From: an uncultured Chromatiaceae bacterium
Lineage (GTDB): Bacteria > Pseudomonadota > Gammaproteobacteria > Tenderiales > Tenderiaceae
DNA length: 64,000 nt
Direction of reading: 5' to 3'
NCBI GenBank assembly: GCA_945787785.1
Contig: CALZIO010000001.1
Coordinates: forward strand, 61,169-125,168
The notes beneath the pieces were generated by a model. That model was not told the origin of the DNA and searched no databases. It worked only from the letters and a program-made list of their open reading frames with translations. Position 1 is the first letter of the stretch. Every line of letters starts with the position of its first letter. Both the position numbers and the translations under genes were made by a program. Below, one piece after another: positions 15,792 through 32,201 of this stretch.

Positions 15792-15881
15792 ACTTTGGAC
15801 TTGCACTGCAATCTGATTTACTCTAGACTCGACCGACAGGTTTTAAATGTTTAAATAAATTTTCTTTTGGGAGGGAAAATA

Positions 15882-15992
15882 ATGGGGATTTTAGTTCCAA
15901 TCGTGCTCTTTTTTGGTCTGTGTGTAGTTTTGGCTGGCGCCATGAGTGAAGTGGCTGTAAAAAGCATTGAAGGCAAACATAGCCCAGATTAA
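15882..15992 (+). CDS. small single-TM protein (36 aa)
   Basis: GGGAGGG lies 6 nt upstream of the ATG. Hydrophobic core IVLFFGLCVVLAGA. Followed by a strong terminator. Not in the ORF track because it is under 60 aa. Confidence 0.35.
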   Translation: MGILVPIVLFFGLCVVLAGAMSEVAVKSIEGKHSPD

Positions 15993-16015: not shown

Positions 16016-16041
16016 AGCCCGGGCCTCCCGGGCTTTTTTAT
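16016..16041 (+). terminator. rho-independent terminator after ggt / small ORF
   Basis: Stem AGCCCGGG..CCCGGGCT followed by TTTTTTATT, with an A-run upstream (possibly bidirectional). Confidence 0.6.
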
Positions 16042-16108: not shown

Positions 16109-16624
16109 ATGCCTGCAACAACAAAATATAGACATCTGACGAAGTTTCTTGGCGCCTCTGTCACCTGCTTTTTCATTGGCAGCATTCACGGGGTGCTTCA
16201 AATGCTCCCTCCGATTCGCGCCTGGCTAGATAGCATCGGCAGCCCTTATGGCGGTCCAGGCCATATGATCGATCCGCTGGCCCATGCCCATATCAATCTT
16301 ATCGGTGGAGTGATGATGCTGGCCATGGCAGTCACCTACTACTTGTTACCGCGTTTTACCGGCACCGAGATATGGTCACGCAAACTGGAAGACATCTCTT
16401 TTTGGCTAACCCTTCTCGGTGTCACCTGTTTTTACGGCAGCCTGTTGATCTTTGGCATCTGGGAAGGCCAGCTGCTACTGCAAGAAGGCGCCGAGCACAT
16501 AAACGAAGTACATAAGATTTATATCCCTATCGGCGCGCTGTCGGCCACCATCATGGGGATTGGCCTGTGGCTGTTCCTAGCAAACAGCGCCATGACTATA
16601 TTTAAATCCAGACACAATTCATGA
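16109..16624 (+). CDS. 4-TM membrane protein homologous to the C-terminal HxH helices of CcoN/heme-copper oxidase subunit I (mini-HCO, copy 1)
   Basis: 171 aa with four TM helices. The LAHAHINLIGG and SFWLTLLG motifs align with WIVAHAHLALLGF and FHFWFLLIGF of the CcoN-like protein at 27543..28949. Paralog at 30961..31479. Confidence 0.6.
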   Translation: MPATTKYRHLTKFLGASVTCFFIGSIHGVLQMLPPIRAWLDSIGSPYGGPGHMIDPLAHAHINLIGGVMMLAMAVTYYLLPRFTGTEIWSRKLEDISFWLTLLGVTCFYGSLLIFGIWEGQLLLQEGAEHINEVHKIYIPIGALSATIMGIGLWLFLANSAMTIFKSRHNS

Positions 16625-17133
16625 CACTGGAATGTGGCTGCCCTGAGCAGTTTCCCGACTGGGACAAGCAGGATGTGGACCTGGGAAGTGAAGCAATCAT
16701 TGAATTATCCATTCCAACATTTCTACACATGCCAATGGGCTACGAAGTCTATCTCGGCCGCGTACGACACCTAATCACACAGCTGGAGTTGGAGCCACGC
16801 TGGCCGAACTTTTATCTGACCCAAACCGGCTGGATGCGCGGCAGGATATTCTGCCCCTTAACATCTGGTGACTCACCTTCACGCCATGTCACACGTTTGC
16901 CCAGCCCGTTTCAACTGCGCGGCAAATTACATCAGGGGGATATTGGCAGCATCAAAAGCAGTGTTCGCGAAATGCAATCCGAGCTGCTCGACGCCGGACG
17001 CATGCCGAAAGAACTTTATCTTAGTTACCTGACCTGCCCTATTTGTCAGGGTAAGAGAGGGGGCGCCAAAACCATGTTATTACGCCGCTGGGAACAGAGT
17101 AGCCGCTTGAGCAAACGCGTCAATAAGTCATAG
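16621..17133 (+). CDS. Cys-rich hypothetical protein translationally coupled to mini-HCO
   Basis: 170 aa. Its start overlaps the upstream stop (ATGA). Has CGC and CPIC motifs. No family recognised. Confidence 0.45.
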   Translation: MTLECGCPEQFPDWDKQDVDLGSEAIIELSIPTFLHMPMGYEVYLGRVRHLITQLELEPRWPNFYLTQTGWMRGRIFCPLTSGDSPSRHVTRLPSPFQLRGKLHQGDIGSIKSSVREMQSELLDAGRMPKELYLSYLTCPICQGKRGGAKTMLLRRWEQSSRLSKRVNKS

Positions 17134-17188: not shown

Positions 17189-17572
17189 TTATAAATCGCC
17201 GTCATAGACCAGCGGAAACTCCAACACTACTTCTTCACCTGCCTTTTTCTTTTGCAGTTGAACATAGAGAAAAGGCCCACCTGACAGACGCAGGGCGCGA
17301 CGATAAACACCGCTATGGCCATCCTGAATCGCCTGCTGCCAGTTATCGCCGGCCTCAGCCCGCAACGAGATAATAAGATCCCGCACAGGCTTACCGCGTT
17401 CCAGAGTGGCTAACACCAGGAACTCATTCATCCCTGGACGAACGGGTATCGGTCTCGATTGAATCTCGATCACTACATCATTCCACTTCTGTGGCGTAAT
17501 CTGGTAACGGGGATCAGGATCACTACAGGCAGATATCAGCACGGCAATTAATACAGCAAACAAACTTCGCAT
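17189..17572 (-). CDS. lipoprotein, unknown function
   Basis: 127 aa with lipobox LISAC. Last gene of the ccoG operon. Confidence 0.5.
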   Translation of the reverse strand: MRSLFAVLIAVLISACSDPDPRYQITPQKWNDVVIEIQSRPIPVRPGMNEFLVLATLERGKPVRDLIISLRAEAGDNWQQAIQDGHSGVYRRALRLSGGPFLYVQLQKKKAGEEVVLEFPLVYDGDL

Positions 17573-17865
17573 CAGACACTCTTGGCAAATTGTTGTAAAT
17601 ACTTCAGCGTAACACCCAGCTCATGCTCGCTCATCAGCTCATAGGCCTTCATGCGGCGCCGCTCTTGCATGCGGTGGATAACATTGGGCCATTCCTTAGC
17701 AGTATGAGCCAGCGGACTTGGTGGCGCATGGCAATCGGAACAGAACTTCTTCACCATTTGCGCACCTTCAGATTCCGGTTCCGGTAACTTAACTCTAGTG
17801 TTCTCTTGAGGCAGCTCACAGGCAGATAAAAACAGCGCCAGCACAAAAAACCCGAATCTAGCCAT
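17572..17865 (-). CDS. small monoheme c-type cytochrome lipoprotein
   Basis: 97 aa with lipobox FLSAC and a single CSDCH heme-binding motif. Confidence 0.65.
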   Translation of the reverse strand: MARFGFFVLALFLSACELPQENTRVKLPEPESEGAQMVKKFCSDCHAPPSPLAHTAKEWPNVIHRMQERRRMKAYELMSEHELGVTLKYLQQFAKSV

Positions 17866-18299
17866 TAGCTCGGGTGCTTGTTATCAGTCTGCTTATGCTC
17901 TTCTTCGGTTTTGTCCAGATCGAGGCGGCCACCAAGTTTAGAGCCATACAGGCGCACCATGAAATAAACGAATATCGATGCCACTAGGAGATAAAGAATT
18001 GCTATGCCAAACCCCCAATCAATCCAGGCACGCTCATAACCCGGGCGATCACCCCAAAAGGGGAAACTCAAACCGATGGCCACCAACAACACCACGATCA
18101 CCACACCAATGAACCACTTCGGTATCCCCTTTTGCGACTCCGGGATTGACTCCAGCAGCTCCCAGTCTTCCATGCCTCGCTTGGCTAGCCGCTCTTCATC
18201 CGTGTCATAACCAAAATGGTCTTCCGGTGTTTTACCCCATTTGCTGTCAATCGAAGTCAACTTCTCTTTTGGCAAGGGCTTGTTCTGTTGCTCGCTCAT
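17865..18299 (-). CDS. membrane protein with FixP_N-like (CcoP N-terminal) domain and no heme motif
   Basis: 144 aa. QKGIPKWFIGVVIV..FPFWGDRP resembles the CcoP N-domain region NPLPRWWFLLFIG..YP. No CxxCH. Paralog at 25925..26554. Confidence 0.5.
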   Translation of the reverse strand: MSEQQNKPLPKEKLTSIDSKWGKTPEDHFGYDTDEERLAKRGMEDWELLESIPESQKGIPKWFIGVVIVVLLVAIGLSFPFWGDRPGYERAWIDWGFGIAILYLLVASIFVYFMVRLYGSKLGGRLDLDKTEEEHKQTDNKHPS

Positions 18300-19612
18300 A
18301 CGCTACCCGCTGAAAAATGTTGGAGGCGGAAACTGTCTTCCCAGCCGTCCTCGGATTTTACCCGCACCAGTATTGGATGCAGACCCTTTGGCAAATCAGG
18401 ACGTATGCTTAATTTCACATTGATACGCCCTGCGGTATCAAAATCGACCCAATCGTTCTGCAATGTGTAGGCATCTTGCTCCAGGCCTTCTATCGAAACG
18501 TACAACCGAGTCGGTTCATAAAATTTATTAGCTACCGAGATACGATAATCGAGAATTTTATCTGCCTGCAGAGTATCCGCACGGTAGGCCGACAGGTGAT
18601 ACCGCTCGTAGTCCCAAAATCCCCAGGCCATCAATAACACACCAATGATAAAAATAGGGAATGTCCAGGAGACTCGGGAGAATAGATCATTCACGTTAGT
18701 CTTGAAATAGGCAAAGCTTTGCCCCTGGCGCTCACCCATAGCAAATTTCAACAACCCCTGTTTGCCAGTCTCTTTACGTGCCTGCAAGGTGTCACAGGCA
18801 GTAATGCACTCACCACAGTTGATACAGGTATCATAGACATCCGTTTTGCGTGGATCGATTGCCAGAAAACAGGAGCTTACGCAGTAATTACATTTGGCGC
18901 ACTCATCCGAGCGTGTATCATCATAAGCCACATGCAGAGTCTGGCGAGTTTTGAAGGTATGTTGCCATACCTTGTAGATGCACATGAAACGGCACATAAA
19001 ATGACGAATCATGGTGATATCTACCAGGATCACCAGAAAGAAAACGGTATATATCCAATGTAGCGATGGCGCCAAACCAGGATCATACTGGAAGCTGACG
19101 AACTTCCAGATCAATATTGGATCATAAAAATAAAACAAGGGTATTAAGGCAACCAGAGCTGACACCCCAGCAGACAACAGAATCAAAATAATCCAATTTA
19201 GAGTCCTATTCTTTGCTGCCGACAGCTGCATTGGTGAGCCGTCCAGACTAATGTCGGCGCGTTTGCCCAACAGCTTGTGAGTCATGCGGTTAGCCCATTC
19301 CGACATGGTGTTCTGCGGACAGGCCCAACCACAAAACACCGTACCCATCACCGAATAGAGCATGGCCAACAGGCAGGCGACTGCGACCCAGAAACCGAAC
19401 ACAATACCAAAATCAGAAAACCAGATTTGCCGGCCCAGAATGACAAACGCGCCCTGAATTGGATCGATACGAAACAGGCCGCTCATCGGAATAAGCACCA
19501 GCAAGGCCATGACGGACAATTGAAAAGCACGGCGCTGCCAATGCAATTTATTTATCGACTTGCGGGATTCGACTAGAACGGGAATTTCACCCAACGTTTT
19601 GTTGGTACTCAT
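18296..19612 (-). CDS. ccoG: cbb3 oxidase accessory protein CcoG/FixG (4Fe-4S ferredoxin-type)
   Basis: 438 aa. TM helices with FCGWACPQ, plus two ferredoxin cysteine clusters: CAKCNYCVSSC and CINCGECITAC. Confidence 0.85.
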   Translation of the reverse strand: MSTNKTLGEIPVLVESRKSINKLHWQRRAFQLSVMALLVLIPMSGLFRIDPIQGAFVILGRQIWFSDFGIVFGFWVAVACLLAMLYSVMGTVFCGWACPQNTMSEWANRMTHKLLGKRADISLDGSPMQLSAAKNRTLNWIILILLSAGVSALVALIPLFYFYDPILIWKFVSFQYDPGLAPSLHWIYTVFFLVILVDITMIRHFMCRFMCIYKVWQHTFKTRQTLHVAYDDTRSDECAKCNYCVSSCFLAIDPRKTDVYDTCINCGECITACDTLQARKETGKQGLLKFAMGERQGQSFAYFKTNVNDLFSRVSWTFPIFIIGVLLMAWGFWDYERYHLSAYRADTLQADKILDYRISVANKFYEPTRLYVSIEGLEQDAYTLQNDWVDFDTAGRINVKLSIRPDLPKGLHPILVRVKSEDGWEDSFRLQHFSAGSV

Positions 19613-19674
19613 CGCCGTAATTTACCATGAAGGGGGCTTTTTTTCATCCGCAACACAACTCAGGGATATCGCTC

Positions 19675-22311
19675 TTAACGCTGTAAAACAGCATCCAACG
19701 GACTATATTTCTGTAACATTTGCCGGTATTCATCTGCCCGGCCCTTATTACCCTCAGCCAACTCCAGCTGCCACAACGCGCGCAAGGCATCGACGTGGTC
19801 AGGCCGGATAAATAGTATTGCTTCCAGCGTCTTACGTGGATCCGCTCCGCGCGCAGTCATGCTCTGCAGACTTACATACATACGATCAGCCAGGGCGCCA
19901 CTGACCCAACGGTCTTTAGGATTGGCTTGGTAAGCAAGTTGCAATAAGCGTTGCCCCTGACGCGCATCACCCTTTAGTTCAGCCACCCAGGCACGTAACG
20001 CGAGCTCTGTGGCCACATATCCGCGCTCGAATAACTCAGCCTGGGCCATTTCAACTTGCAAGGCCTGATGCGCCTGATTCAGATGAGGGCGTTGTTGCAA
20101 TAGCCACTCCATCAACACCACCAGGTCCATCTCACCTCGATAACGAGCCCGAGGCAGATGATATTCAATGACAGGCGCCCACTCACCCTGAACAGGACCT
20201 TCTGACAGCGTGACAGGGCCCCAGTAGCGTCCCAACCAACTCCAGACACCTTCACTACCCGTGATTTGCTGCTGTGCTGCCTGATCTAGCTTAGCCAGGC
20301 TTTGCAATGTTGTATGTACACTTACCCGCCATTGTTTACCACCCACCAGCGCCAAGCGAAAACCATCAACAAACATCAACGCATCCGGAAAAACCTGCTT
20401 AAAAGTGCGTAACACCACTTTGAGGGATTCGGGATCAAACTGATTCAATGCCAACCACTGCACAAACAAGCCACCTTCAACCAGACGCGATTTGGCTCGC
20501 TGAAATTGCTGTAACGACAACAAGGCACTGCGTCCGACCAAGTCCGGATGAAACAGATCACCGATAATCACATCGTAGCTTTGTGTTGTTGTTTGCAAAA
20601 AACGACGCGCATCGTCACGCACGATTTTCATTTTGTCGCTGATATCATCATTGACTGGCGCAAACCACACCTGTGCCGCCTCTATCGCCCCCTGCGACAA
20701 CTCGACTGCAGTACGTTCCAGCTGTGGATAGGGCAACGATGCCGCAGCCGAAATGCCTGTCCCCAGGCCAAGGAACAATACCTGCTGTGGATCCGGGTGC
20801 AGCAATAAAGGCAGACGCACCTGATTTTGTTGTGACACCACAGCCAGTGGCTCAGATGAAGCATCCATACGCTGCAAATCAGCCAGTAACAGACGTTGAC
20901 CATCTTCACGTTTAATTACATGAGTAATCGCCAGGGCATTTTCATGCACAAACAAGTCGCGACTATTGGCCTGCCCTTGTGGCAACAACTGATTGACAGC
21001 AGGCATTTGTGAAACAGGCCAGGCCAAGACCAGCAACAACGGCAATGCTATCCAACTTCGCTGCGCCGCCCATGCCATTCCAGAAATAAACAACAACAAC
21101 GCTGCCAGCACAATCGTCCCAACTGTGCCCAGCAACGGGACCAATACAAAGCCAGCGACCAACGCCCCTGCTGCGGCGCCGATGGAATTGGCACCATACA
21201 ATTTTGCACCTATCGATTTGTCCTGCCCCAGGCGTGCACTCAACAAAGGCAACCAAGCACCCAGCAACAGAGTCACTGGCAGAGTCAACAATGCGATTGC
21301 TATTCCCTGGGCCAACATTGCACCGGCCAGGGAGTTAAATTCACTCTGTTCCGCCCAGGCGGCTAACAATGGAATCAACCAGAGACTCAACAAGGCAAAC
21401 ACCGCGGTCGCAATTGGTAACACATCAAACCACCAACGCGCCAGCAACCGTCTCGCCAACAAACTGCCAACACCAATCCCCACCAAAAACACCGCCAGGA
21501 TGACCGCCATGACATACTCAGTGCGCAACAACAGCATGCCAAATAGGCGCGTCCAACCAACCTCCAGCATCAAGGCGGCGGCACCAACACCGGCATAGGC
21601 AAATAGTGTGATGAGGTTGATTGATGTTTTTGAAACCGGCTGATTGGAAACGGGCATTTCGAACTTACTCTGGCCTGACTGATTCCGGCGCGACAATAAC
21701 CACGCTGCTGCGCCTACAGCTATTCCTATCATGGCCACCAACCAAACACCCGCCACCCAGCCTAGCGTTGGTAATAGTAACAATGGCAGTAATGCACCAA
21801 TGGCACCACCACAGGTGTTCAGACCGTAAACCCAACTCAGTGACAGTGAAGTATGTTGCACCGCCCTTAACACGAGCGGAAAACCAATCCCCATCAATGT
21901 AGCTGGCAAGGTGATCAAGACGAGTGCTGCGATCAGCTGCATGGCATACCACAAGGATAAGCTCTCAGGTGCTAAATACGTTACCCCTCCATCAACCATG
22001 CGTAAGATGAATGGCAACACCAAGGCATAGAGCGCCACACTAACTTCGATAATCGCAAAAAGTCGCAATGGGTTTTGTCTGTTGTGGCTAATACGACCAC
22101 CCCATAATGCACCAATACCCAGACCCAGCATAAAGGCAGCGGCGCTAACAACAACCCCAAAAATACTGACACCGAATTGCAGCGATAGCATGCGTGCCCA
22201 CAACACCTGGTACGCCAGACCAACTGCACCGGAAAAAAAGTAAAGCGTCGCCACGCCTCTAGCAAAGGATGGGGCCGTTATAACCTGAGCTGGAACCACA
22301 ACAGACATCAA
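19675..22311 (-). CDS. multi-TM / spermidine-synthase-like / TPR fusion protein
   Basis: 878 aa. About 12 N-terminal TM helices, a central PABS-like domain (YDVIIGDLFHPD..GGLFVQW) and a C-terminal TPR-like helical region. Confidence 0.7.
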   Translation of the reverse strand: MMSVVVPAQVITAPSFARGVATLYFFSGAVGLAYQVLWARMLSLQFGVSIFGVVVSAAAFMLGLGIGALWGGRISHNRQNPLRLFAIIEVSVALYALVLPFILRMVDGGVTYLAPESLSLWYAMQLIAALVLITLPATLMGIGFPLVLRAVQHTSLSLSWVYGLNTCGGAIGALLPLLLLPTLGWVAGVWLVAMIGIAVGAAAWLLSRRNQSGQSKFEMPVSNQPVSKTSINLITLFAYAGVGAAALMLEVGWTRLFGMLLLRTEYVMAVILAVFLVGIGVGSLLARRLLARWWFDVLPIATAVFALLSLWLIPLLAAWAEQSEFNSLAGAMLAQGIAIALLTLPVTLLLGAWLPLLSARLGQDKSIGAKLYGANSIGAAAGALVAGFVLVPLLGTVGTIVLAALLLFISGMAWAAQRSWIALPLLLVLAWPVSQMPAVNQLLPQGQANSRDLFVHENALAITHVIKREDGQRLLLADLQRMDASSEPLAVVSQQNQVRLPLLLHPDPQQVLFLGLGTGISAAASLPYPQLERTAVELSQGAIEAAQVWFAPVNDDISDKMKIVRDDARRFLQTTTQSYDVIIGDLFHPDLVGRSALLSLQQFQRAKSRLVEGGLFVQWLALNQFDPESLKVVLRTFKQVFPDALMFVDGFRLALVGGKQWRVSVHTTLQSLAKLDQAAQQQITGSEGVWSWLGRYWGPVTLSEGPVQGEWAPVIEYHLPRARYRGEMDLVVLMEWLLQQRPHLNQAHQALQVEMAQAELFERGYVATELALRAWVAELKGDARQGQRLLQLAYQANPKDRWVSGALADRMYVSLQSMTARGADPRKTLEAILFIRPDHVDALRALWQLELAEGNKGRADEYRQMLQKYSPLDAVLQR

Positions 22312-22358
22312 TAAGCCTTAACACTCAGAGTGTGGCTTGAGTGGTACATAGCAAAAAA

Positions 22359-22739
22359 CTAGAAAGGAAAAAACCAGACAATGGCAGTCACCGCATGGGC
22401 AATGCCAAGTGTAACCGTCAGGCCAGCACTAATCATGTGCGGCACAAAAACTTCTTTATTAAAGACCACCATCGAAACACCAAGATAGGCCGTGCTACAG
22501 AGCAACAACAACAGGGCAATGCCCATATAAAATAGTATCTTGTGCTTAACCTCGTCCTTGACCTCGTAGGCTTCCTGTTGCGCCAGCGCCTCTTGGTTGA
22601 AAGCCTCCATTACCTCCAATGTATCATCGATACGTTGCTGCTCTTGTGCATGCGCGAACGGCATTGCCAGACAGAGAGAAAGCACCAGCAGCGCTGACAC
22701 TAGAGCAATACGATGTTTCAAGCAACGGTAAAGACTCAT
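22359..22739 (-). CDS. exported/membrane hypothetical protein
   Basis: 126 aa with signal peptide and C-terminal TM segments. Last gene of a tightly packed operon. Confidence 0.4.
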   Translation of the reverse strand: MSLYRCLKHRIALVSALLVLSLCLAMPFAHAQEQQRIDDTLEVMEAFNQEALAQQEAYEVKDEVKHKILFYMGIALLLLLCSTAYLGVSMVVFNKEVFVPHMISAGLTVTLGIAHAVTAIVWFFPF

Positions 22740-22744
22740 ACTAT

Positions 22745-22978
22745 TTATTTCTCACCCTTTGCGGCTTCCTCTTTGTTTTTCCGCATCGCATTGTGCCAAT
22801 AGAGTATTGCCATTAGGACAAACGGAAATAACACAGCAATCAGTAAGAAAATAAAAATCATCCATGGCGTATCTATGGTGACGTGCATATAACGATAACT
22901 GTCTGCCATCGCGGCCGGCATCATCAGTAACATCGCCATAAGCACAGCCAACTGACTCAATAATTTATTCATCAGCAT
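22745..22978 (-). CDS. small membrane protein (77 aa)
   Basis: Signal/TM segment plus a second TM. Overlaps the upstream FGE-family gene by 14 nt. Confidence 0.4.
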   Translation of the reverse strand: MLMNKLLSQLAVLMAMLLMMPAAMADSYRYMHVTIDTPWMIFIFLLIAVLFPFVLMAILYWHNAMRKNKEEAAKGEK

Positions 22979-24047
22979 TTACCCCTTCTTTTACATCCGC
23001 AGCACAACGAAAACCGAAAAAATCTGATGCATAATGTGGCCAGGAATAATTTCGGTGATAGGTGGTCGTAGAAAATGGGTCACTTTTCCAAGAGCCACCA
23101 CGCAACACTTTGTATTTGGCATCCACGCCCACTAAATCCACCACCTTCATGGCACGATCTGCGGGTGTAGAAGCGACTTGAATCTTGCCTTTAAAAATGT
23201 TCTGGTCTGCATCTGTGTTTTTATAGGGTAGAAAATCATCCTCAATCCACTCAGACACATTGCCAGCCATATCCATAACACCATACGGACTGGCACCATC
23301 AGAGTAACTCGTCACATCTGTGGTCGAACCCATATTGTAATAAGTATTGAGACGGGCTGTTTCCATCTGCTCACCCCAGGGCCAGCGCCGACCATCGTCG
23401 CCGCGCGCGGCTTTTTCCCATTCTGTTTCATGAGGCAAGCGCTTATTAGCCCAGGTACAATAGTTGCTGGCATCGTACCAGGAAATCATCGTCACCGGAT
23501 GCAATTCCATCCCTTCTTGTATGCGCCCATTTTCCCAATCAAGCGGCGGCCGATATCCATGCTCTGCAACAAAGCGAGCGTACTGGGCATTGGTGGTTGG
23601 GTATTTATCAATCTTATATTCGACTAGATTGACTTCATGTTTGGGATGATTCTGAGCGCTGGTTCTGATCCTGTCTGAGCCCATATAAAAAGGACCGGCA
23701 GGGATAGTTGCCATGCTATTGACCTCAACCCATTGCTCCGGACTTAACAGCGCCTCTACTTCTGCGAGACTATATGGTATCGTCTTTGCCCGGTCAGCCT
23801 CATGCCTTTCGTGCAGAGCTATATCTTCACCAGCAGCACGAATACGGCTATTCATTTCAGTCAGGTCATAGGTTGCCTTGCTAGACATTTCCTGGAAGAC
23901 GCGACTGTGACCCAAATCAACCACGTGAATCGCCCCACCCACCATGGCCAATGCGGCACACGTCACAAGAGTCGCACTTAGAAAGCGTTTACGTCTAGCC
24001 CGCTCCGTTACCGAGAGCTGACGTCTATTTTTATACTGCTTCTCCAT
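22965..24047 (-). CDS. membrane-anchored FGE-sulfatase (SUMF1/NirV-like) family protein
   Basis: 360 aa with an N-terminal TM. Motifs RLPHETEWEKAARG, MAGNVSEWIEDD, RVLRGGSW and GFRC match the FGE-sulfatase domain. Confidence 0.8.
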   Translation of the reverse strand: MEKQYKNRRQLSVTERARRKRFLSATLVTCAALAMVGGAIHVVDLGHSRVFQEMSSKATYDLTEMNSRIRAAGEDIALHERHEADRAKTIPYSLAEVEALLSPEQWVEVNSMATIPAGPFYMGSDRIRTSAQNHPKHEVNLVEYKIDKYPTTNAQYARFVAEHGYRPPLDWENGRIQEGMELHPVTMISWYDASNYCTWANKRLPHETEWEKAARGDDGRRWPWGEQMETARLNTYYNMGSTTDVTSYSDGASPYGVMDMAGNVSEWIEDDFLPYKNTDADQNIFKGKIQVASTPADRAMKVVDLVGVDAKYKVLRGGSWKSDPFSTTTYHRNYSWPHYASDFFGFRCAADVKEGVNADE

Positions 24048-24532
24048 TAACTTTCTGGGTCTGAAGGGCCGTTCTTAGAAGGCTGCTTATAGATCAAATG
24101 CTTCGGTCGTCGTCCATAGGTTCTTTTGATGACGATCTCACCAAACACACCACCAAATGCCGCCGCTTCAATAGCTACGATCAAAACCAGAATCCAGTAC
24201 CCAAACGGCAACAGGCCAACACCATCGGGCAACCCTTCGTAGTTCATCATTTGAATATAACTGTAACCACGGACGATGATAGGAACAAAATAACAAATCA
24301 ATTTACCGCCTAGGCCATAAACTAATGACACTACCATACCGGCAACAAATGGGACTAAAAACAGCGTTAATACCCACATCGGGCTAAAGGTCGAGACGCC
24401 AAAAAATAATTCCAGCCGTACACCCGGTGGCGGACTGAGATAATTCATTAAACGATCGCCAAAGTAATTTACAATTACACCAGCTGTAATGGCGACTGTA
24501 CCCATAACGATAGTCATTACACGGTTATTCAT
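24047..24532 (-). CDS. 4-TM membrane protein, unknown function
   Basis: 161 aa. Overlaps neighbouring genes by 1 nt and 8 nt, so translationally coupled. Confidence 0.5.
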   Translation of the reverse strand: MNNRVMTIVMGTVAITAGVIVNYFGDRLMNYLSPPPGVRLELFFGVSTFSPMWVLTLFLVPFVAGMVVSLVYGLGGKLICYFVPIIVRGYSYIQMMNYEGLPDGVGLLPFGYWILVLIVAIEAAAFGGVFGEIVIKRTYGRRPKHLIYKQPSKNGPSDPES

Positions 24533-25025
24533 TACTATCGCCTTGATACGACTCGCCAGTCAGTTTCTCAAACTCAGACTTTTTCACTTGATTTAAATAC
24601 CAGTCTTCAACCTTTAAGTTCGCCAGATATGCCGCCAGGGTTTTGCGATCTTCTTCAGGCAAATGGGAAAATGACGGCATTTGATATTCTGCTTTCAGCC
24701 GCGTTGGCAAAATCTGCTGTGGATCTGCTGCCGAAAGATAATCAAATAACCATGACTCATCACGCAGCGAACCGATCCCATCTAGAGCGGGTGCTGGCAC
24801 AGCCTGCATCGGATTCCGTACACCCCACAATGTGTGACAATCACGGCACTTTTGCTCCCGATAGAGTTCTCCACCCTTTTTCCGGACCTCGTTTGAGGCT
24901 GTACTATAAAAGGGAATTCCTTTATCCGGCTCAGTTTCTTGAGCTTGCCGATAACTATTTATACCTATAAACACAAAAACAATAACCGCGATTACAACCA
25001 GGATCCCTTTTTCACCTTTTCGCAT
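24525..25025 (-). CDS. membrane-anchored monoheme cytochrome c, NorC/CcoO-like
   Basis: 166 aa with an N-terminal TM. ELYREQKCRDCHTLWG resembles the NorC heme region. Paralog at 31494..32066. Confidence 0.7.
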   Translation of the reverse strand: MRKGEKGILVVIAVIVFVFIGINSYRQAQETEPDKGIPFYSTASNEVRKKGGELYREQKCRDCHTLWGVRNPMQAVPAPALDGIGSLRDESWLFDYLSAADPQQILPTRLKAEYQMPSFSHLPEEDRKTLAAYLANLKVEDWYLNQVKKSEFEKLTGESYQGDSNE

Positions 25026-25319
25026 TTATTCTTTGTTCTCAGCTTTTTCTTTTAAATTTTTATTCTCTGCTTTCTCTTGTAAAAGCTCTTCACGGCGTTT
25101 CATTTGAGCCTTCATGACATCCTGACTTTTCTTGAACTCTTCAGGCGTCATCTTATCCTTATCATTTTCATCAAACACCAGGTATTTGATATCCTCATCA
25201 AACTGTTCATTACGCGCAGCCCAGCGTATGGCAAAGATGGCAGCAACTATAATCAAGACACCGGCAACTAACCATACATAAATCGTCCAACCATCAGGTA
25301 ATTTATCTAAATCCATCAA
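25026..25319 (-). CDS. single-TM protein with charged C-terminal tail
   Basis: 97 aa. Adjacent to the cytochrome gene with no intergenic gap. Confidence 0.4.
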   Translation of the reverse strand: MMDLDKLPDGWTIYVWLVAGVLIIVAAIFAIRWAARNEQFDEDIKYLVFDENDKDKMTPEEFKKSQDVMKAQMKRREELLQEKAENKNLKEKAENKE

Positions 25320-25328
25320 ACCTCTCCT

Positions 25329-25652
25329 CTAAAATAGGTAACCTTGCAGCAACTGCATTGCCGCCATAATCACTGCCGCAACAATACCTAGATAAATCCA
25401 AAAAAACATGATTTTTTCACCAGTTTTGAGCTGCTTGACTGGCCCATCGGCATTAGTAGTTTTTGAACTACTTCTCATAAACTTAAATACAATAACTGTA
25501 AAAACAGCAATGCAAAAAAGCAGAAAGATAAAGATTCCCACACTAAACTGCTGGCTGTATAGACCTTCAACTCCCCAGCGATCATCCGTTATAGCCTGCA
25601 CAAATAGACCATCAAAGGCTGAAAAGGTTGCCAATGAGTCATGATAATTCAT
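25329..25652 (-). CDS. 2-TM membrane protein (start at ATG 25652; ORF-track TTG start at 25703 less likely)
   Basis: 107 aa. The terminator at 25702..25727 lies upstream, so this gene begins a new transcription unit. Confidence 0.4.
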   Translation of the reverse strand: MNYHDSLATFSAFDGLFVQAITDDRWGVEGLYSQQFSVGIFIFLLFCIAVFTVIVFKFMRSSSKTTNADGPVKQLKTGEKIMFFWIYLGIVAAVIMAAMQLLQGYLF

Positions 25653-25701
25653 CACACTTAATACCTGACTTTTGATATACCAAAGAACCGTAGTATACCT
25701 C

Positions 25702-25727
25702 AAAAAAAATGCCGCTCAGAGAGCGGC
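25702..25727 (-). terminator. rho-independent terminator ending the ccoN-ccoO-FixP_N-41aa unit
   Basis: On the minus strand: stem GCCGCTC..GAGCGGC followed by a T8 run. A second hairpin at 25744..25766. Confidence 0.5.
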
Positions 25728-25778
25728 AATAATATTCATCAAACTCCGGAGGTAAAAGCCTCCGGGTTTATTACATTG

Positions 25779-25904
25779 TTATGAATCTATCTGTTTCTTG
25801 CCTTTATCGTAATTATCAATAAAGAAACTGTAGATAAATGGGGCAACAAACACAACAATAATGATGCCCAGCAGCACCAACGGTGGATTATCAATATCTA
25901 TCAT
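25779..25904 (-). CDS. tiny single-TM protein (41 aa), possible CcoQ-position micro-subunit
   Basis: MIDIDNPPLVLLGIIIVVFVAPFIYSFFIDNYDKGKKQIDS. Sits between the FixP_N-like gene and the terminator. Confidence 0.3.
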   Translation of the reverse strand: MIDIDNPPLVLLGIIIVVFVAPFIYSFFIDNYDKGKKQIDS

Positions 25905-25924
25905 TTTAATCTCCTTAAAATCTT

Positions 25925-26554
25925 TTAGTGTGCAACACTGTGATCAGGCTGCCAACTGTAGTGTGGCAGACGCTTGATGACTATCAGCACCGCAATACAG
26001 AAATAAGCTACGTAGAAGATATCGATGGTATAACCCTTATCCCACCAAGGCTGTTTACGTTCACGAGTACCATCTGCTTTCCAATTGCCTTCGAAATTAG
26101 CCAGGACGACATGCGGACCAACGACTGTGTATTCACCCAGGTCAACACCCTTACGTTGTAACTCAATAACCTGACCTTCAATCATACGCAGATCATCCAT
26201 CTCAAGCGGGTGACGATCCAGCTGCCCCTGAATTCTTGCATTAGAGCTTTTGCCATTAGCCACGATGTACTCCATCTTGGCCCTGTCCCCATCAATCGCC
26301 TGAACTGCTGGACTATTCATCAACTTCAAATAGTCCTCATAGATTTCAGCCGTTGGGCGTTGCCCCCAAAGAGGGAAGGTAACCAAAAAAGCGCTGATAA
26401 TTGTCAAGCCCAGCAACCACACAACCGGTGATGGCAGACGGTTATTATCTTCTGCAATTCCCCCTAAACTTTCACCTTCCCATACCTTGGTTGCTGCTGA
26501 ATTTTGCTCTTCGTCAGTCAACGAGTACAGCGGTTTATCCATTTTCCATGACAT
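25925..26554 (-). CDS. membrane protein with FixP_N-like domain only (CcoP lacking both cytochrome c domains)
   Basis: 209 aa. NNRLPSPVVWLLGLTIISAFLVTFPLWGQRP aligns with CcoP [26 protein letters not shown]. No CxxCH. Lies directly downstream of the ccoO-like gene. Confidence 0.6.
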   Translation of the reverse strand: MSWKMDKPLYSLTDEEQNSAATKVWEGESLGGIAEDNNRLPSPVVWLLGLTIISAFLVTFPLWGQRPTAEIYEDYLKLMNSPAVQAIDGDRAKMEYIVANGKSSNARIQGQLDRHPLEMDDLRMIEGQVIELQRKGVDLGEYTVVGPHVVLANFEGNWKADGTRERKQPWWDKGYTIDIFYVAYFCIAVLIVIKRLPHYSWQPDHSVAH

Positions 26555-26568
26555 TGTTATTCTCCCCC

Positions 26569-27519
26569 TTACTTCAGGCTCATGATGAAGTCGATAAGAT
26601 AGCGAATTTCGCTATCCGCTGCGTAGTTTGGCACATCCGGCGGTATGACAGTTTTGCCATGCGCGTAGTCATTGTATGCTGTTCTCCAGGCATCATAGTC
26701 GATAGCCTTACCATCAGCATCATTCTCACCCCAGAGGTAATCATAACGAGGCATGATTGAATGTGGTTGCACCAAACGAGGATTAAAAAAGTGCATCATC
26801 ATCCACTCTTTAGATGCGTTACGAGAACCAACATGCAACAAGTCAGGTGCTTTCCGGTCAGAACCAAAGGCTGTTGGCGATTCACCATTATAATCACCTA
26901 GACGTGGTGGAATCCCAAAATACTGCCAATCCTGAGTTTGTTCAGGCAGCAAGGTATGACACCACCAGCAACCTTCACGAACAAACATGATTTTACCCGA
27001 ACCAATCAAATGGGTATTTGCATCACCCGCCGCATTCAACACCTGACTAGGCTGCCAACCACGAGTCGCTGATGCGTTCTCGATGTAGTTAACAGTTTCG
27101 CCATTGTGAGTGGCACGACTAATTACAAACACAGCACCATTATCGTGGTTAGCCTCTTCAATACGACCCTGCGCTGTACTCAACTCCGTTGCACCTGGAC
27201 CCAGTGTACGAGGATGGTTAATCCCACTCGGGAAAGGAGTGCCAGCTTCATACACAAATGCCTGCACAGTTTCGATTGGCTCATTGGTTTTAGGATCTTT
27301 ATTCAGAACCACTGTCTTCGGCTTGCCGTCACCGCGTAAAAATGGATCTTCATATGAGAACCCACCAATGCGGCCATAAGACAACTGCTTCGTTAAGCCC
27401 ATTTCAGTTACGGCTACTGATGTCATATCCACTGTAGGCATGTACAGCGTAATAACCATCGAGCCACCCAAGGCTACACCAAACAGGCGTGAGCCAATTT
27501 TATATTCTCTAAATGCCAT
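26569..27519 (-). CDS. ccoO: CcoO-like monoheme subunit II of cbb3-type oxidase, with an insertion of about 110 aa
   Basis: 316 aa with an N-terminal TM. VREGCWWCH and PDLLHVGSRNASKEWMMMHFFNPRLVQPHSIMPRY align with CcoO regions EGCYLCHS and [35 protein letters not shown]. Confidence 0.8.
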   Translation of the reverse strand: MAFREYKIGSRLFGVALGGSMVITLYMPTVDMTSVAVTEMGLTKQLSYGRIGGFSYEDPFLRGDGKPKTVVLNKDPKTNEPIETVQAFVYEAGTPFPSGINHPRTLGPGATELSTAQGRIEEANHDNGAVFVISRATHNGETVNYIENASATRGWQPSQVLNAAGDANTHLIGSGKIMFVREGCWWCHTLLPEQTQDWQYFGIPPRLGDYNGESPTAFGSDRKAPDLLHVGSRNASKEWMMMHFFNPRLVQPHSIMPRYDYLWGENDADGKAIDYDAWRTAYNDYAHGKTVIPPDVPNYAADSEIRYLIDFIMSLK

Positions 27520-27542
27520 TTATAAATCCTCCCCTACTATTA

Positions 27543-28949
27543 TTAACGTTCGTACGCCAATTCGTGTGGCAGACGGCCTTCTGGGATTTCAGTTCCGGCT
27601 TTAGCGGTCATATACATGTTGTACAACCAGACTATGTTACCGGTGAATACCATGGTGCCACCAATCCAACGCGCAATCATGTATGGATGTTCAGCGATTA
27701 CAACGTCAATATAGGGAACCTCGTAGATCTTACCTGCACCCTGAATCAAACCAGCGATGGTCATTGAAATCCAGTAGATTGCAAATCCGATCAGCAAGAA
27801 CCAGAAGTGGAAGTTAGCCAACGCCAGCGAATAAAGTTTACGACGCAGGATTGTTTGCAGACCGTAGTACACAGCCGCAGCTTCCAGAAATGTAGAGAAG
27901 CCAAGCAAGGCTAAATGAGCATGGGCAACGATCCAACCCGTACCATGGATATACCAGTTGATAGCACGTGTTTGTTGAAACCCACCTTGCATGTTCAGAG
28001 GAATCGCCAACATGACACCCGTGATGGTGTATTTGATTTCGACATTTTCCACAAACATGTGCCACTTACCAGTCATGGTCAACAGCAGGTTAGATACGAA
28101 AGCAATTGCAGGCACCAGGATCAACACCCCTTCTACAGAAGCGAATGACTTCAGCCACTCAGGCAAAGGCGCTGACATCAAATGGTGAGCCGCTGGTGTT
28201 GAGTAGAACACAACAACGGACCAAAAGTGCAAGTGACCAATACGATGCGAATAAAGCGGGTTACCGGTTACTTTTGGTACAGTGTAGTAAGCAATCGCCG
28301 CTGCGATTGGTGTAATCCAAAGACCTAATACATTGTGCGCAAACCACCATGTCAGGTATGCCTCACTCAAACCGGTCAGATTGAAGAACTCAGGGCTGTT
28401 ACCTACGATAAAAACGATGGTAACCATGAACACGCCAGCACCAAAGAACCAGTTAGTTGTATAGATGCCCTGGGTACGACGTTTGAGGATAGTCATCCAA
28501 ACGTTAAGCGCCATAGGTAATGCAATAAATGCAGCAATGTACAAATCTATAGCCCATGGAAAATCTGAATACTCACGACCAGAAGTCATACCGAACCACA
28601 GCAGAGTAAGGCCCAACGACAGACCGACGTTCCACAAGAAGCAGTTCCATACACCGAGTTTTTCAGACCACAGCTTGGTATTACCCAGCGCAGGCGTGAT
28701 GTACATCATTGCCATGGCGAATGCCATAGAAATCCAGCCAAAAATTACTGCCAGTACGTGAACCTGACGCATGTGACCGAACGAAAACAACTCAGAACCT
28801 GTCACAAAATCAGGAAATGCCAGTTTGGCCGCGTTAAACGATCCCAAACCAGTACCAACCACAAACCAAATAATAGACGAGAAACCAAAGAATACCGCTG
28901 CCGTACCTGGCGGGATATCCTCATTTCTTCTAAATAGATATTTCAACAT
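27543..28949 (-). CDS. ccoN: cbb3-type (C-family) heme-copper oxidase subunit I, CcoN-like
   Basis: 468 aa with 12 TM helices. Carries GHMRQVH, WWFAHN, FYSTPAAHH (Tyr six residues before the HH pair) and VAHAH. Confidence 0.85.
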   Translation of the reverse strand: MLKYLFRRNEDIPPGTAAVFFGFSSIIWFVVGTGLGSFNAAKLAFPDFVTGSELFSFGHMRQVHVLAVIFGWISMAFAMAMMYITPALGNTKLWSEKLGVWNCFLWNVGLSLGLTLLWFGMTSGREYSDFPWAIDLYIAAFIALPMALNVWMTILKRRTQGIYTTNWFFGAGVFMVTIVFIVGNSPEFFNLTGLSEAYLTWWFAHNVLGLWITPIAAAIAYYTVPKVTGNPLYSHRIGHLHFWSVVVFYSTPAAHHLMSAPLPEWLKSFASVEGVLILVPAIAFVSNLLLTMTGKWHMFVENVEIKYTITGVMLAIPLNMQGGFQQTRAINWYIHGTGWIVAHAHLALLGFSTFLEAAAVYYGLQTILRRKLYSLALANFHFWFLLIGFAIYWISMTIAGLIQGAGKIYEVPYIDVVIAEHPYMIARWIGGTMVFTGNIVWLYNMYMTAKAGTEIPEGRLPHELAYER

Positions 28950-29002
28950 GGTTTACAACCTCCCCCTTCTTTCGAAGATTAAAAAACTTAAAACTTGAAA
29001 TC

Positions 29003-29098
29003 TTATTCGTGACTACCAGGCATCATCAGATACCATGCAAACCACATACTGGAAAACGCAAGGATGATACAAAAAATTGTCGCTACCATCGTTAACAT
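29003..29098 (-). CDS. tiny hydrophobic protein (31 aa) immediately upstream of ccoN
   Basis: MLTMVATIFCIILAFSSMWFAWYLMMPGSHE. GGAGGGGATATT precedes the ATG. Confidence 0.3.
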   Translation of the reverse strand: MLTMVATIFCIILAFSSMWFAWYLMMPGSHE

Positions 29099-29169
29099 AA
29101 TATCCCCTCCGAAATACTTAAATTAAAATAGCTGGAATTGCCCCATTTAGCAGGAACAAAGAAACTTTA

Positions 29170-29451
29170 CTATTTGGCAGCCGCCGCTTCCAATTCACCG
29201 TGACGATTTAGTGAGATCAGCATAATAGCGGTGAACGCAACACCGAACACAATCATGCACCAGTTGATAAAGCCCATAAACGTTGATGGATCCAGGCCTT
29301 GCATACCCCAACCGCCCCAGTCATCAAAGCGAGCACGGCCGAGTGCGCACATTAATGCAGCACCAAACACACTACCATTACCCATACCTGTGGTAACTCC
29401 AGCAATTAGACTTACGATAAACGTTTTAGCTGGCGTCAGATTATTCATCAT
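29170..29451 (-). CDS. small membrane protein (93 aa)
   Basis: Two hydrophobic segments with a Gly-rich segment GVTTGMGNG. First gene of the minus-strand unit leading into ccoN. Confidence 0.4.
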   Translation of the reverse strand: MMNNLTPAKTFIVSLIAGVTTGMGNGSVFGAALMCALGRARFDDWGGWGMQGLDPSTFMGFINWCMIVFGVAFTAIMLISLNRHGELEAAAAK

Positions 29452-29781
29452 GATTCCCCTCCATTTGCGGTTTGGTCAACCCATTAACAGTATTGTAGCC
29501 TTCCAACTCCATCTGAATTCACCTTTGAGCCCCCCTCTCAGGTTTCTTTTTGACAGATTTACACTTCAAAATTGGAAGCCAACTCTGACCAGCGATATTT
29601 GCATATCTATTACAAACCAGTCAAGCGCTTTTTAAAAACAACCAACAGATTTTACTAAACTATTCTAGTAATTTTTCGCTCTCATTGATTAACTGTATAA
29701 TTCCTGCACAATTCACAGCCTGCACTCATCTTGCTTTAATTGATAAATCAGACTGGTACAGCAAATATACAGGGAATTTTG

Positions 29782-29976
29782 ATGAAGGAAATTATTATTT
29801 ATTCGATTGCGGCAATTGCAGTAATCACGGTGTTTGGCTACTCAATCCACATGTTTATTGGCGGGTTTGTTGAACCACAAACAGAAACACTTATTATCAC
29901 CGCTGGCTGCATATTTGCTGCCACTGTAATTGGCTTTCTTACCTGGGATATTATTAAGAAGAGACGCGGCAGCTAA
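29782..29976 (+). CDS. small 2-TM protein (64 aa)
   Basis: Start at the internal ATG of ORF 29740..29976. Transcribed divergently from the ccoN unit. Confidence 0.3.
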   Translation: MKEIIIYSIAAIAVITVFGYSIHMFIGGFVEPQTETLIITAGCIFAATVIGFLTWDIIKKRRGS

Positions 29977-29997
29977 ACCAAAAACCGCAAAGCAGAT

Positions 29998-30453
29998 TTA
30001 TTTGTATACTGACAAATGCGAGCGAACATCTTTAAAGTCCGACTCTTGCATAAATTGACCGCGGTGAAAAACAAACTGACGCTTCTTCCCTGACAGATCC
30101 ATACCCACCAAGCCAAACGATTTTCCTGCGTAATCAGGGAAATAACGAAGATCTTTTACCAGCTCCACTCGCTCTCCGCCGTTAACTGTAACTGCTACGG
30201 ACTTTTTCTGTAATTCAAGCCCGCGCGGAGATTTCGGCAATAACATCAGCCGAGTTCCCAGAATCCGGTTTGCGCCTATCAGAAAGATGAAAGTTGCCAG
30301 AAAAACAAGTACGTATGCCATAGTCTGGTCACCGCTGTACCAGGTTTTTGCTGCATAAGATGCCAGCACCAACACGACAGGCACATACAGCAGGGCATCC
30401 CAAGCCGCCCCGCGCTTATCTGAAGCCAGGTTATAGTTTTCTACTTTCGCCAT
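29998..30453 (-). CDS. membrane-anchored hypothetical protein
   Basis: 151 aa with two N-terminal TM helices and a soluble C-terminal domain. Its start abuts the stop of the thioredoxin-like gene. Confidence 0.5.
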   Translation of the reverse strand: MAKVENYNLASDKRGAAWDALLYVPVVLVLASYAAKTWYSGDQTMAYVLVFLATFIFLIGANRILGTRLMLLPKSPRGLELQKKSVAVTVNGGERVELVKDLRYFPDYAGKSFGLVGMDLSGKKRQFVFHRGQFMQESDFKDVRSHLSVYK

Positions 30454-30983
30454 TAACCTGTCTCAGAGCCAAGAACTTTCTTAAGCGTATACTCCAGCTC
30501 GCCGTACAGAACCCGTCCAGCCTGCTTGTACTGCACCACCTGATTTTCATCAATCACGTAAGTCCAGGGGTCACCCATGACCTTAAATGCCTTGAATGCT
30601 TCAGGGTTTTGATACTGATCCATATGCAGGAATATCACATCGTCGCCATAGACTTCCATTATCCCTTTCAACATCTGCAGCTGTTTATCGCAGACGGTAC
30701 AGTGTCCGGGCGTCGCAAATTCAAGCACAATAGGTTTACCTTGCGCCAAGGCATCATCCAGCGAATACTGGTACATTCTCTCATCAGGGTGGCGGTAACT
30801 GGTAATGCGACTGAAATCCCCGCCCACATCGGCTAAAGTCTTGGTCTTTACCTGAGGAGCAGTTGACCCCACTTGCAGCGAACCCTCAGGTGAGGCGCCA
30901 CAACCAACCAGTAATAAAGTAACTGACAACCCTAACAGGAACCGCATCATAGCCGCTCTCCTAATAATTCTTTTCCCAACCAA
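30453..30983 (-). CDS. TlpA/ResA-like thioredoxin-fold lipoprotein (CxxC)
   Basis: 176 aa with lipobox LLVGC. HCTVC redox motif in a thioredoxin-fold context (VLEFATPGHCTVC). Confidence 0.65.
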   Translation of the reverse strand: MVGKRIIRRAAMMRFLLGLSVTLLLVGCGASPEGSLQVGSTAPQVKTKTLADVGGDFSRITSYRHPDERMYQYSLDDALAQGKPIVLEFATPGHCTVCDKQLQMLKGIMEVYGDDVIFLHMDQYQNPEAFKAFKVMGDPWTYVIDENQVVQYKQAGRVLYGELEYTLKKVLGSETG

Positions 30984-31479: not shown

Positions 31480-31493
31480 GCTATTACCCCCTA

Positions 31494-32066: not shown

Positions 32067-32112
32067 AACTTATTTCCAAACCCACCCATGTTGGCCACAC
32101 ACACACTGAACC

Positions 32113-32138
32113 CGCCACGAACAAAAAAGGCGGTTAAC
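32113..32138 (-). terminator. rho-independent terminator after cytochrome c4 gene
   Basis: On the minus strand: GGCGG-gttaa-CCGCC stem followed by a T6 run. A second strong hairpin (11-bp stem) lies at 32151..32180. Confidence 0.5.
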
Positions 32139-32201
32139 CCGCCTTTTAGATTGCCAGGGTGCAAATAAGTTGCACCCTGGATATTGTTAAAACACTAAAA
32201 A

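Follow-up and report, generated by a model that had tools for sequence, protein, structure and literature searches.

What can a protein do in a respiratory chain if it resembles only the last third of the catalytic subunit of an oxidase? The question is raised by a 64,000-nucleotide stretch of DNA from an uncultured Chromatiaceae bacterium (contig CALZIO010000001.1; the whole stretch is termed the window here, and coordinates are counted from its first letter), in which two short genes, here named mini1 and mini2, encode relatives of subunit I of the heme-copper oxidases. We propose that each mini protein is a heme-b-binding protomer, probably of a trimer, that contributes to a copper-free, subunit-I-like ring serving a CcoN/CcoO oxidase system, and we place this reading at slightly below even odds (about 0.45). 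Homology, predicted fold, motif conservation, the lack of copper ligands, purifying selection, transcription in a relative, synteny and the triple fusions with their modelled fold are observations described below; heme binding, the formation of a trimer or other oligomer, and a role in electron transfer are what we infer.

Both genes are intact. A first-pass annotation, made from the letters alone, had described mini1 as an unbroken open reading frame (ORF) of 171 amino acids (aa) and had pointed to a second intact but diverged copy; mini1 does run uninterrupted from an ATG, and mini2 is a 172-aa paralogue with 29% identity to mini1 over 92 residues (expectation value, E, 2e-10). The start of mini1 is sound, because orthologues have matching N-termini and a terminator-like hairpin closes the preceding unit. 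The ribosome-binding site (RBS) credited to mini1 fares less well than the start, since the Shine–Dalgarno sequence is weak, being either GGG at −10..−8 or AGGGA abutting the ATG. The same hairpin and its T-run end the upstream unit, and mini1 thus begins its own transcript; a promoter scan found no sigma-70-like promoter upstream of it, a result that is uninformative.

The resemblance to subunit I can be placed precisely. BLASTP aligns residues 57–142 of mini1 with residues 341–419 of the CcoN-like protein encoded at 27543..28949 (33% identity, E 2e-8), and the alignment takes in VAHAHLALLGF and FHFWFLLIGF, in agreement with the proposed match of AHAHINLIGG and SFWLTLLG to the helix X region. 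The similarity is significant in a profile search, in which Pfam COX1 (PF00115, gathering cut-off 34.8 bits) scores 54.1 bits on mini1 and 66.5 on mini2. The mini1 match covers profile positions 310–407 of 436, and both proteins match only within 310–436. NCBIfam models for CcoN, CtaD and CyoB hit the same C-terminal stretch far under their full-length cut-offs; the CcoN equivalog TIGR00780, with a curated cut-off of 583, gives 35.8 bits for mini1 and 51.2 for mini2. A profile built from both mini families aligns with residues 304–462 of Pseudomonas stutzeri CcoN (3mk7_A, E 7.9e-19) and sets H59 and H61 of mini1 on H345 and H347 of helix X, which we take to be the ligands of heme b3 and heme b in the cbb3 structure.

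The predicted fold agrees with this placement. An AlphaFold model of mini1 (predicted local distance difference test score, pLDDT, 90.8; predicted template modelling score, pTM, 0.83) has long helices at residues 8–30, 50–84, 91–126 and 128–170 and a short periplasmic helix at 34–42, and in a Foldseek search of the PDB its best matches are CcoN chains (template modelling score TMq 0.76–0.79; 0.78 for 3mk7_A). By the positive-inside rule, both termini of the mini proteins would be cytoplasmic and the His-x-His motif would lie near the periplasmic face, as it does in helix X. Subunit I of oxidases and nitric oxide (NO) reductases requires twelve helices, and mini1, with 171 aa and four long helices in the model, falls short of that number. 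The pseudo-threefold symmetry of subunit I has long been known, and the mini family profile matches the CcoN-like protein of the window three times, at helices I–IV, VI–VII and IX–XII (within-window E 3e-7, 2e-6 and 1e-18); it thus picks up the threefold repeat within subunit I. In profile–profile comparison mini2 is closest to canonical helices IX–XII, and closer than mini1. Helices IX–XII of CcoN (3mk7_A) and the mini proteins share the four-helix fold, the helix X His-x-His, a YYxxP motif, an (H/S)FW at the start of the following helix and a polar residue at the position of the TM9 Glu (TM, transmembrane helix). Unlike CcoN, the mini proteins have four of the twelve helices and lack the TM2 His, the TM6 His, the TM7 His-His and the cross-linked Tyr, and hence have neither a CuB site nor a second heme b ligand within the chain.

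Conservation singles out the two helix X histidines. The motif HxH(I/V)N..G is kept in 240 of 240 retrieved homologues from both families (120 of 120 for the mini1 motif), and the His-x-His of subunit I is thus present by alignment throughout, with heme ligation predicted. Residues invariant in both families include R37, D41, H59, H61, N63, G66, Y77, S90, F98 and N159; K12, Q31, H52, D55, Y109 and W154 are invariant in mini1 only, and E70, H98, H102, N103, E133 and C165 in mini2 only. The only histidines invariant across both are H59/H61 of mini1, equivalent to H60/H62 of mini2. N63 of mini1, an Asn two residues past the second His, is specific to the mini families, and the mini protein has a long invariant periplasmic loop, RAWLDSIGSPYGGPGHMIDP. 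The ligands of CuB or FeB (one His of helix VI and the His-His of helix VII) have no equivalent in either family, an HH dipeptide occurring in only 6 of the 240 homologues; helix 3 of mini1 contains no histidine, and H98 and H102 of mini2 lie near the cytoplasmic end of that protein's own helix 3 and are not the HH pair. Nor is there an equivalent of the helix II His, the second ligand of the low-spin heme, as the mini chain has no counterpart of helices I–IV.

Because the two histidines of the motif stand two residues apart on one helix, they face opposite sides, and heme ligation would therefore need a second protomer or a partner. This tells against the suggestion in the first-pass annotation of a self-contained bis-His four-helix heme module. 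The bis-His b-type cytochromes (cytochrome b of the bc1 complex, b561 and b562-type proteins) are likewise small helical membrane proteins in which histidines are expected to hold b-type heme, but there each ligand pair is drawn from separate helices of one bundle, whereas in the mini proteins both conserved histidines are on the same helix. An intramolecular site completed by H27 of TM1 was considered and rejected: H27 is 97% conserved in mini1, but it is Gln in some orthologues and in the fusions, and Trp in mini2. The mini2 family also has a fully conserved Glu (E70) buried in helix 2 and a His-x3-His-Asn group (H98, H102 and N103) at the cytoplasmic end of helix 3, both absent from mini1; these residues could form a proton path or a second metal or heme site.

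How such modules might assemble is indicated by natural fusions. A search of 1.84 billion representative sequences with the family profile returned as top matches proteins of 625–1122 aa with three full-length module matches each. They belong to Chloroflexota and carry the annotation of a cbb3 subunit I (~655–730 aa, e.g. P0397 and P0241), and each of their modules aligns end to end with mini1 at 30–40% identity; in profile–profile comparison the fusion modules group with mini1 (scores of 210–315) and canonical modules score at most 110. The AlphaFold model of P0397 (pLDDT 87.4, pTM 0.84) superposes on whole NorB and CcoN chains with TMt 0.71–0.75 over ~520–550 columns, and thus three mini modules make a subunit-I-like ring of 12 helices, in fused form and by prediction. 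The fused gene is the last of an operon with COX1 and FixO genes in three Chloroflexota loci, so the link between the mini module and C-family oxidases spans three phyla. The fusions share with the mini proteins both the module and the company of a CcoN/CcoO-like oxidase; they differ in having three modules in one chain, extra C-terminal helices and differentiated histidines, which leave two rather than three potential inter-module sites.

The histidines of all these proteins can be read on a single registry, obtained by anchoring every module on YYxxP, whose Pro lies 22 residues after the first His. On it, the TM2 His of canonical CcoN occupies position 1, the TM6 His position 2, and TM10 both. 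The Chloroflexota fusions read x-T-H / H-A-H / H-A-Q (position 2, both, position 1; invariant H82, H254, H256 and H421), which is a cyclic permutation of the canonical pattern. In another fused protein, P0265 (~413 aa), HxH is found in all three modules on the same registry, and P0310, P0329 and P0348 contain three HxH motifs each, read from sequence. We take it from the cbb3 structure that heme b is held by position 2 of TM10 and position 1 of TM2, and heme b3/CuB by position 1 of TM10 and position 2 of TM6; each site therefore pairs position 2 of one module with position 1 of the next. Every pattern may then be described as a three-site ring lacking either no site or one, the canonical enzyme and the Chloroflexota fusion having apparently lost different sites. 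The four shorter proteins (P0265, P0310, P0329 and P0348; loci L091, L092 and L093) have 400–437 aa, three short COX1-like modules and six histidines in 12 helices; their gene neighbours are SCO1/SenC, ferredoxins and cytochromes c, or a ScdA_N/DUF1858 protein, and they may be a separate, uncharacterised family of copper-free subunit-I-like proteins.

Applied to the free mini proteins, the registry suggests a mechanism. Each helix X His would complete a heme site only with a His of the neighbouring module, with b-type hemes at the module interfaces, each ligated by the second His of one module and the first of the following one. Three modules would close into a 12-helix ring that mimics subunit I and could be homo- or hetero-trimeric, the simplest assembly consistent with the fusions. 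Such a ring would reduce neither O2 nor NO, because the CuB/FeB ligands are absent. It would instead be an accessory membrane b-type cytochrome of the divergent CcoN/CcoO oxidase whose genes lie between mini1 and mini2, and the anchored cytochrome c whose gene adjoins mini2 would be the probable electron donor of mini2.

The features of the locus are collected in table 1. The genes of the conserved cluster stand in the order diheme cytochrome c, cytochrome c, mini2, thioredoxin-fold protein, 151-aa protein, 93-aa protein, CcoN-like, CcoO-like, FixP_N-like (209 aa), 124-aa protein, FixS-like (97 aa), cytochrome c (166 aa), 161-aa protein, FGE-sulfatase-like (360 aa), 77-aa protein, 126-aa protein, spermidine-synthase-like (878 aa), CcoG-like (438 aa), 144-aa protein, lipoprotein cytochrome c (97 aa) and 127-aa protein.

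Table 1. Features of the mini1–mini2 locus, in coordinates of the window.
Feature	Position	Strand	Description
mini1	16109..16624	+	ATG ORF; 171-aa four-helix protein homologous to helices IX–XII of C-family subunit I
AHAHINLIGG of mini1	16280..16309	+	residues 58–67 (H59, H61)
SFWLTLLG of mini1			residues 97–104
mini2	30961..31479	-	172-aa intact four-helix paralogue of mini1
AHTHINLLG of mini2	31279..31305	-	residues 59–67 (H60, H62)
36-aa ORF	15882..15992	+	single helix; strong GGAGGG RBS at 15870..15875; hairpin terminator after it
Terminator-like hairpin	16021..16035	+	T-run to 16045; ends the unit upstream of mini1
PF20603 ('Bact_hydrolase') gene	16621..17133	+	170 aa, Cys-rich; ATG overlaps the mini1 stop (ATGA)
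Conserved cluster (~16 kb)	17189..32966	-	bracketed by mini1 and mini2
878-aa protein	19675..22311	-	polytopic membrane protein with spermidine-synthase-like domain
FGE-sulfatase-family protein	22965..24047	-	360 aa
cytc166	24525..25025	-	second membrane-anchored monoheme cytochrome c
FixS-like protein	25026..25319	-	97 aa; weak FixS/CcoS match
FixP_N-like protein	25925..26554	-	209 aa; weak FixP_N (CcoP membrane anchor) match, without cytochrome c domain
CcoO-like protein	26569..27519	-	monoheme subunit, 316 aa
CcoN-like protein	27543..28949	-	468 aa; complete, divergent C-family subunit I
Thioredoxin-fold gene	30453..30983	-	TlpA/ResA-like; immediately downstream of mini2
cytc190	31494..32066	-	membrane-anchored monoheme cytochrome c, 190 aa, CTSCH; immediately upstream of mini2

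The oxidase itself appears complete. The CcoN-like protein has the TM2 His, the TM6 His, the TM7 HH with a Tyr six residues before it, and HAH in TM10, and it scores 230 bits with TIGR00780 (cut-off 583). Because this ligand set is its own, helices IX–XII included, the mini genes are not missing pieces of it. In the CcoO-like protein the FixO profile covers residues 169–272 only, and an N-terminal extension of ~165 residues (an anchor and a periplasmic insert) has no family match. From the FixP_N-like and FixS-like sequences, the oxidase would appear to retain a CcoP remnant without heme and to possess a CcoS-like factor of its own.

The place of cytc190 directly upstream of mini2 is a conserved arrangement, and the gene order resembles norC–norB: in both, the gene of an anchored monoheme cytochrome c is followed by that of a copper-free protein of the subunit I fold. 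NorB differs from mini2 in having 12 helices and a non-heme iron site of three His and a Glu, and cytc190 matches the generic Cytochrom_C family only, with no specific signature of NorC or CcoO. The two anchored cytochromes cytc190 and cytc166 are paralogues (27% identity, E 2e-10) and mirror the mini pair; mini1 and mini2 may be partnered by separate cytochromes c. On the other side of mini2, the thioredoxin-fold gene as listed begins with a TTG that places its first 23 nucleotides inside the end of mini2. Since these genes merely abut, or share a single base, in relatives, translation probably starts at a codon further downstream.

From Gammaproteobacteria to Leptospirillia, the 878-aa and FGE-like genes are conserved in the cluster; copper enzymes and maturation factors of the NirV type both belong to the FGE family. 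A third module was looked for within the window. A hidden Markov model of the family, run over all six frames, hit nothing but mini1, mini2 and the three repeats inside the CcoN-like protein, and ten other cluster proteins (of 161, 151, 144, 126, 124, 209, 93, 77, 127 and 97 aa) gave probabilities of at most 6% in profile–profile comparison with mini and canonical modules; none of the ten is therefore a hidden module.

On the plus strand, mini1 and the PF20603 gene form a two-gene unit that is convergent with the end of the minus-strand cluster. The PF20603 gene is the operon partner of mini1 in Gamma- and Zetaproteobacteria; it is not beside mini1 in Gallionella, Nitrotoga and Leptospirillia, and so its product is not a universal partner. 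The protein has no matches in a PDB sequence search or in NCBIfam. Upstream of the hairpin, the 36-aa ORF MGILVPIVLFFGLCVVLAGAMSEVAVKSIEGKHSPD has a small gene called in its place in Tenderia (41 aa) and in the metagenome-assembled genome (MAG) GCA_945787605.1 (36 aa), and may encode a small membrane protein of the respiratory cluster.

Both mini families are widespread. In a large protein database mini1 has 981 homologue clusters and mini2 has 762, nearly all of ~170 aa with a COX1 match only, and both copies are conserved in hundreds of related genomes. Neither of the two grounds on which the first-pass annotation would have been withdrawn, a lack of conservation in relatives and a profile similarity short of significance, is thus borne out. 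Mini1 shares 83% identity with a 'Candidatus Tenderia electrophaga' protein (P0009), and an identical mini1 protein is encoded in MAG GCA_945787605.1; the window is syntenic with the Ca. T. electrophaga chromosome CP013099, with identical gene order on both sides. The ratio of non-synonymous to synonymous substitution rates (dN/dS) of mini1 against five orthologues is 0.05–0.08, which indicates strong purifying selection; the measure covers mini1, synonymous sites in mini2 being saturated. Hundreds of homologues of ~170 aa, these ratios, the invariant motifs and synteny bear out the earlier view that mini1 is not a gene fragment.

Scanning a single genome for each GTDB species yielded 270 relatives, the best 80 of which come from Tenderiales and other Gammaproteobacteria, Zetaproteobacteria (Mariprofundus), Gallionella, Ca. 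Nitrotoga and Nitrospirae (Leptospirillum). Gene-order analysis shows the cluster neighbours recurring in Gamma-, Zeta- and Betaproteobacteria and in Leptospirillia, and mini1 and mini2 occur together in Tenderiales-like Gammaproteobacteria, Gallionella and Leptospirillia. In Leptospirillia the genes form a compact, co-directional operon: CcoO-like, 209, 124, cytochrome c, FixS-like, (161), mini1, FGE-like, mini2, 77 and CcoG-like. In five zetaproteobacterial loci (L020, L026, L038, L042 and L045) mini1 lies directly beside, and divergent from, a diheme cytochrome labelled Cyc1 in Tenderia, which has been proposed to connect the iron oxidase of the outer membrane with the oxidase as a periplasmic carrier. 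The cluster appears to be characteristic of bacteria that use high-potential donors: the Fe(II) oxidisers among the Zetaproteobacteria, Gallionella and Leptospirillum, the nitrite oxidiser Nitrotoga and the cathode-oxidising Tenderia. The Ca. T. electrophaga orthologues Tel_00520 and Tel_00415 are transcribed, at 8.35 and 8.71 log counts per million (logCPM), and their CcoN-like and CcoO-like neighbours at 13.74 and 12.84 (PMC5371394 supplement).

Several of these observations weigh against an electron-transferring ring. The mini transcripts of Tenderia lie ~30-fold (length-corrected ~14-fold) below those of CcoN and CcoO and are about as abundant as those of the CcoG-like maturation genes, which is more in keeping with an accessory or assembly function than with a redox partner present in stoichiometric amounts. 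The cluster neighbours include genes of maturation type (thioredoxin-fold, FixS-like, CcoG-like and FGE/NirV-like). Each cluster has two mini paralogues only, and no hidden third module was found. All hemes of the oxidase fold are at one membrane depth, and the energetic gain from a copper-free heme ring is hard to see; AlphaFold, finally, may be biased towards the known oxidase fold. The strongest rival, a role in subunit I assembly such as the first-pass annotation had also suggested, draws on the same facts. The mini proteins would serve as a scaffold for biogenesis, transiently binding heme b and passing it to the nascent CcoN-like protein or chaperoning its C-terminal third, together with the CcoS-like, CcoG-like, thioredoxin-fold and FGE-like proteins; a ring is compatible with this role, which would be transient and non-respiratory. 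Besides the transcript levels shared with maturation genes, the overlap of mini2 with the TlpA/ResA-like gene speaks for it, as do the position of mini1 at the 'maturation' end of the cluster, near the CcoG-like gene and co-translated with a Cys-rich cytoplasmic protein, and the Leptospirillia order, in which the mini genes flank the FGE-like gene between FixS-like and CcoG-like. Scaffolds homologous to their client are known, as with NifEN for NifDK. Canonical cbb3 oxidases, however, assemble without such proteins, the Chloroflexota fusions, with 12 or more helices and four invariant histidines as two complete sites, look like stable cofactor proteins, and the cytochrome c gene conserved just ahead of mini2 suggests that the two products form a pair for electron transfer. 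On this balance a scaffold is possible but distinctly the less probable account.

Single protomers might alternatively dock as peripheral subunits on the CcoN-like protein or on a bc/cbb3 supercomplex, possibly sharing an interface heme and forming no ring. Strict co-location with a complete CcoN/CcoO pair in three phyla would suit such subunits, and cbb3 oxidases do carry extra small membrane subunits (cf. the PDB title of 9g6b, 'cbb3-2 NOH complex'); yet the mini transcripts are sub-stoichiometric, the fusions hold exactly three modules predicted to close into a subunit-I-like ring, and both histidines are invariant although a single docking interface would use one face of the helix. We regard this as unlikely, and as far more doubtful still the notion of an autonomous minimal terminal oxidase or NO-handling enzyme, a 'partial cbb3 oxidase 1' in which a cytochrome c and a truncated CcoN generate proton-motive force. 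The norCB-like gene order would favour it, and a Tenderiales preprint groups a monoheme cytochrome with a truncated CcoN and proposes an 'alternative complex IV' (bioRxiv 10.1101/2022.05.06.490989), but neither family has equivalents of the copper or iron ligands (TM6 His and TM7 His-His), and the module is without the helices that form the catalytic pocket and proton channels. That the genes are non-functional remnants of a ccoN duplicate, or that they encode the detached C-terminal part of a split ccoN, is scarcely credible: their match is confined to the last third of subunit I, and annotation calls them truncated or partial oxidase subunits, but a uniform length of ~170 aa in hundreds of homologues, dN/dS of 0.05–0.08, invariant motifs, synteny across phyla and transcription all contradict a remnant. 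A split gene is ruled out, as the CcoN-like protein has complete helices IX–XII of its own, with HAH.

Where the module came from can be told in two ways. The proximity of mini2 to helices IX–XII suggests that the mini proteins are derived truncations of C-family subunit I; alternatively, they may be older than the triplication. In a more far-reaching and tentative version, which we think doubtful, they are free protomers of a C3-symmetric, copper-free, three-heme 'proto-subunit I'. Subunit I of all heme-copper oxidases would then have arisen by triplication of such a module, with one inter-module heme site lost and another turned into the heme–copper centre, and the Chloroflexota would have independently re-run this path through triplication of a mini1-like module and loss of a different site.

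The first-pass annotation recognised no described family here. This is right in that Pfam and NCBIfam have no dedicated family, but the Tenderia orthologues had already been labelled 'truncated CcoN'. Of similar size are the small bacterial membrane proteins of DUF2871 (PF11070), a family of unknown function, whose profile gives a weak end-to-end match to mini2 (residues 22–159 on profile positions 7–128 of 134) at 16.5 bits, below the gathering cut-off of 27.4, and does not match mini1. The label was given to the Ca. T. electrophaga orthologues in a conserved 26-gene region (bioRxiv 10.1101/2022.05.06.490989). These proteins, ALP51744.1 (Tel_00520) and ALP51724.1 (Tel_00415), are direct orthologues of the mini proteins in the same syntenic cluster, at the ends of the cbb3-1/cbb3-2 region. 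Their published treatment consists of the figure-legend label, the idea of an 'alternative complex IV' and transcript counts (bioRxiv 10.1101/2022.05.06.490989; PMC5371394), and in the searchable literature the mini genes are mentioned only under that label and in the transcriptome table of PMC5371394. The 'distal' cbb3 oxidase is treated in papers on Zetaproteobacteria, Gallionellaceae, Sideroxydans and Leptospirillum, which do not take up the mini genes, and no analysis of a free single-module homologue of subunit I was found in the searchable literature. That literature also seems to contain no description of the single-module architecture, of the triple fusions or of their common histidine registry.

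The oxidase cluster that contains the mini genes is highly conserved and highly expressed, and whether the mini proteins act as a b-type cytochrome or as a scaffold matters for understanding and reconstituting that respiratory chain. A single module, two kinds of triple fusion and the canonical enzyme, all on one histidine registry, provide a testable model for the origin of the fold and of its heme sites. If a proto-subunit I of this kind did exist, the origin of the oxidase fold would become accessible to experiment.

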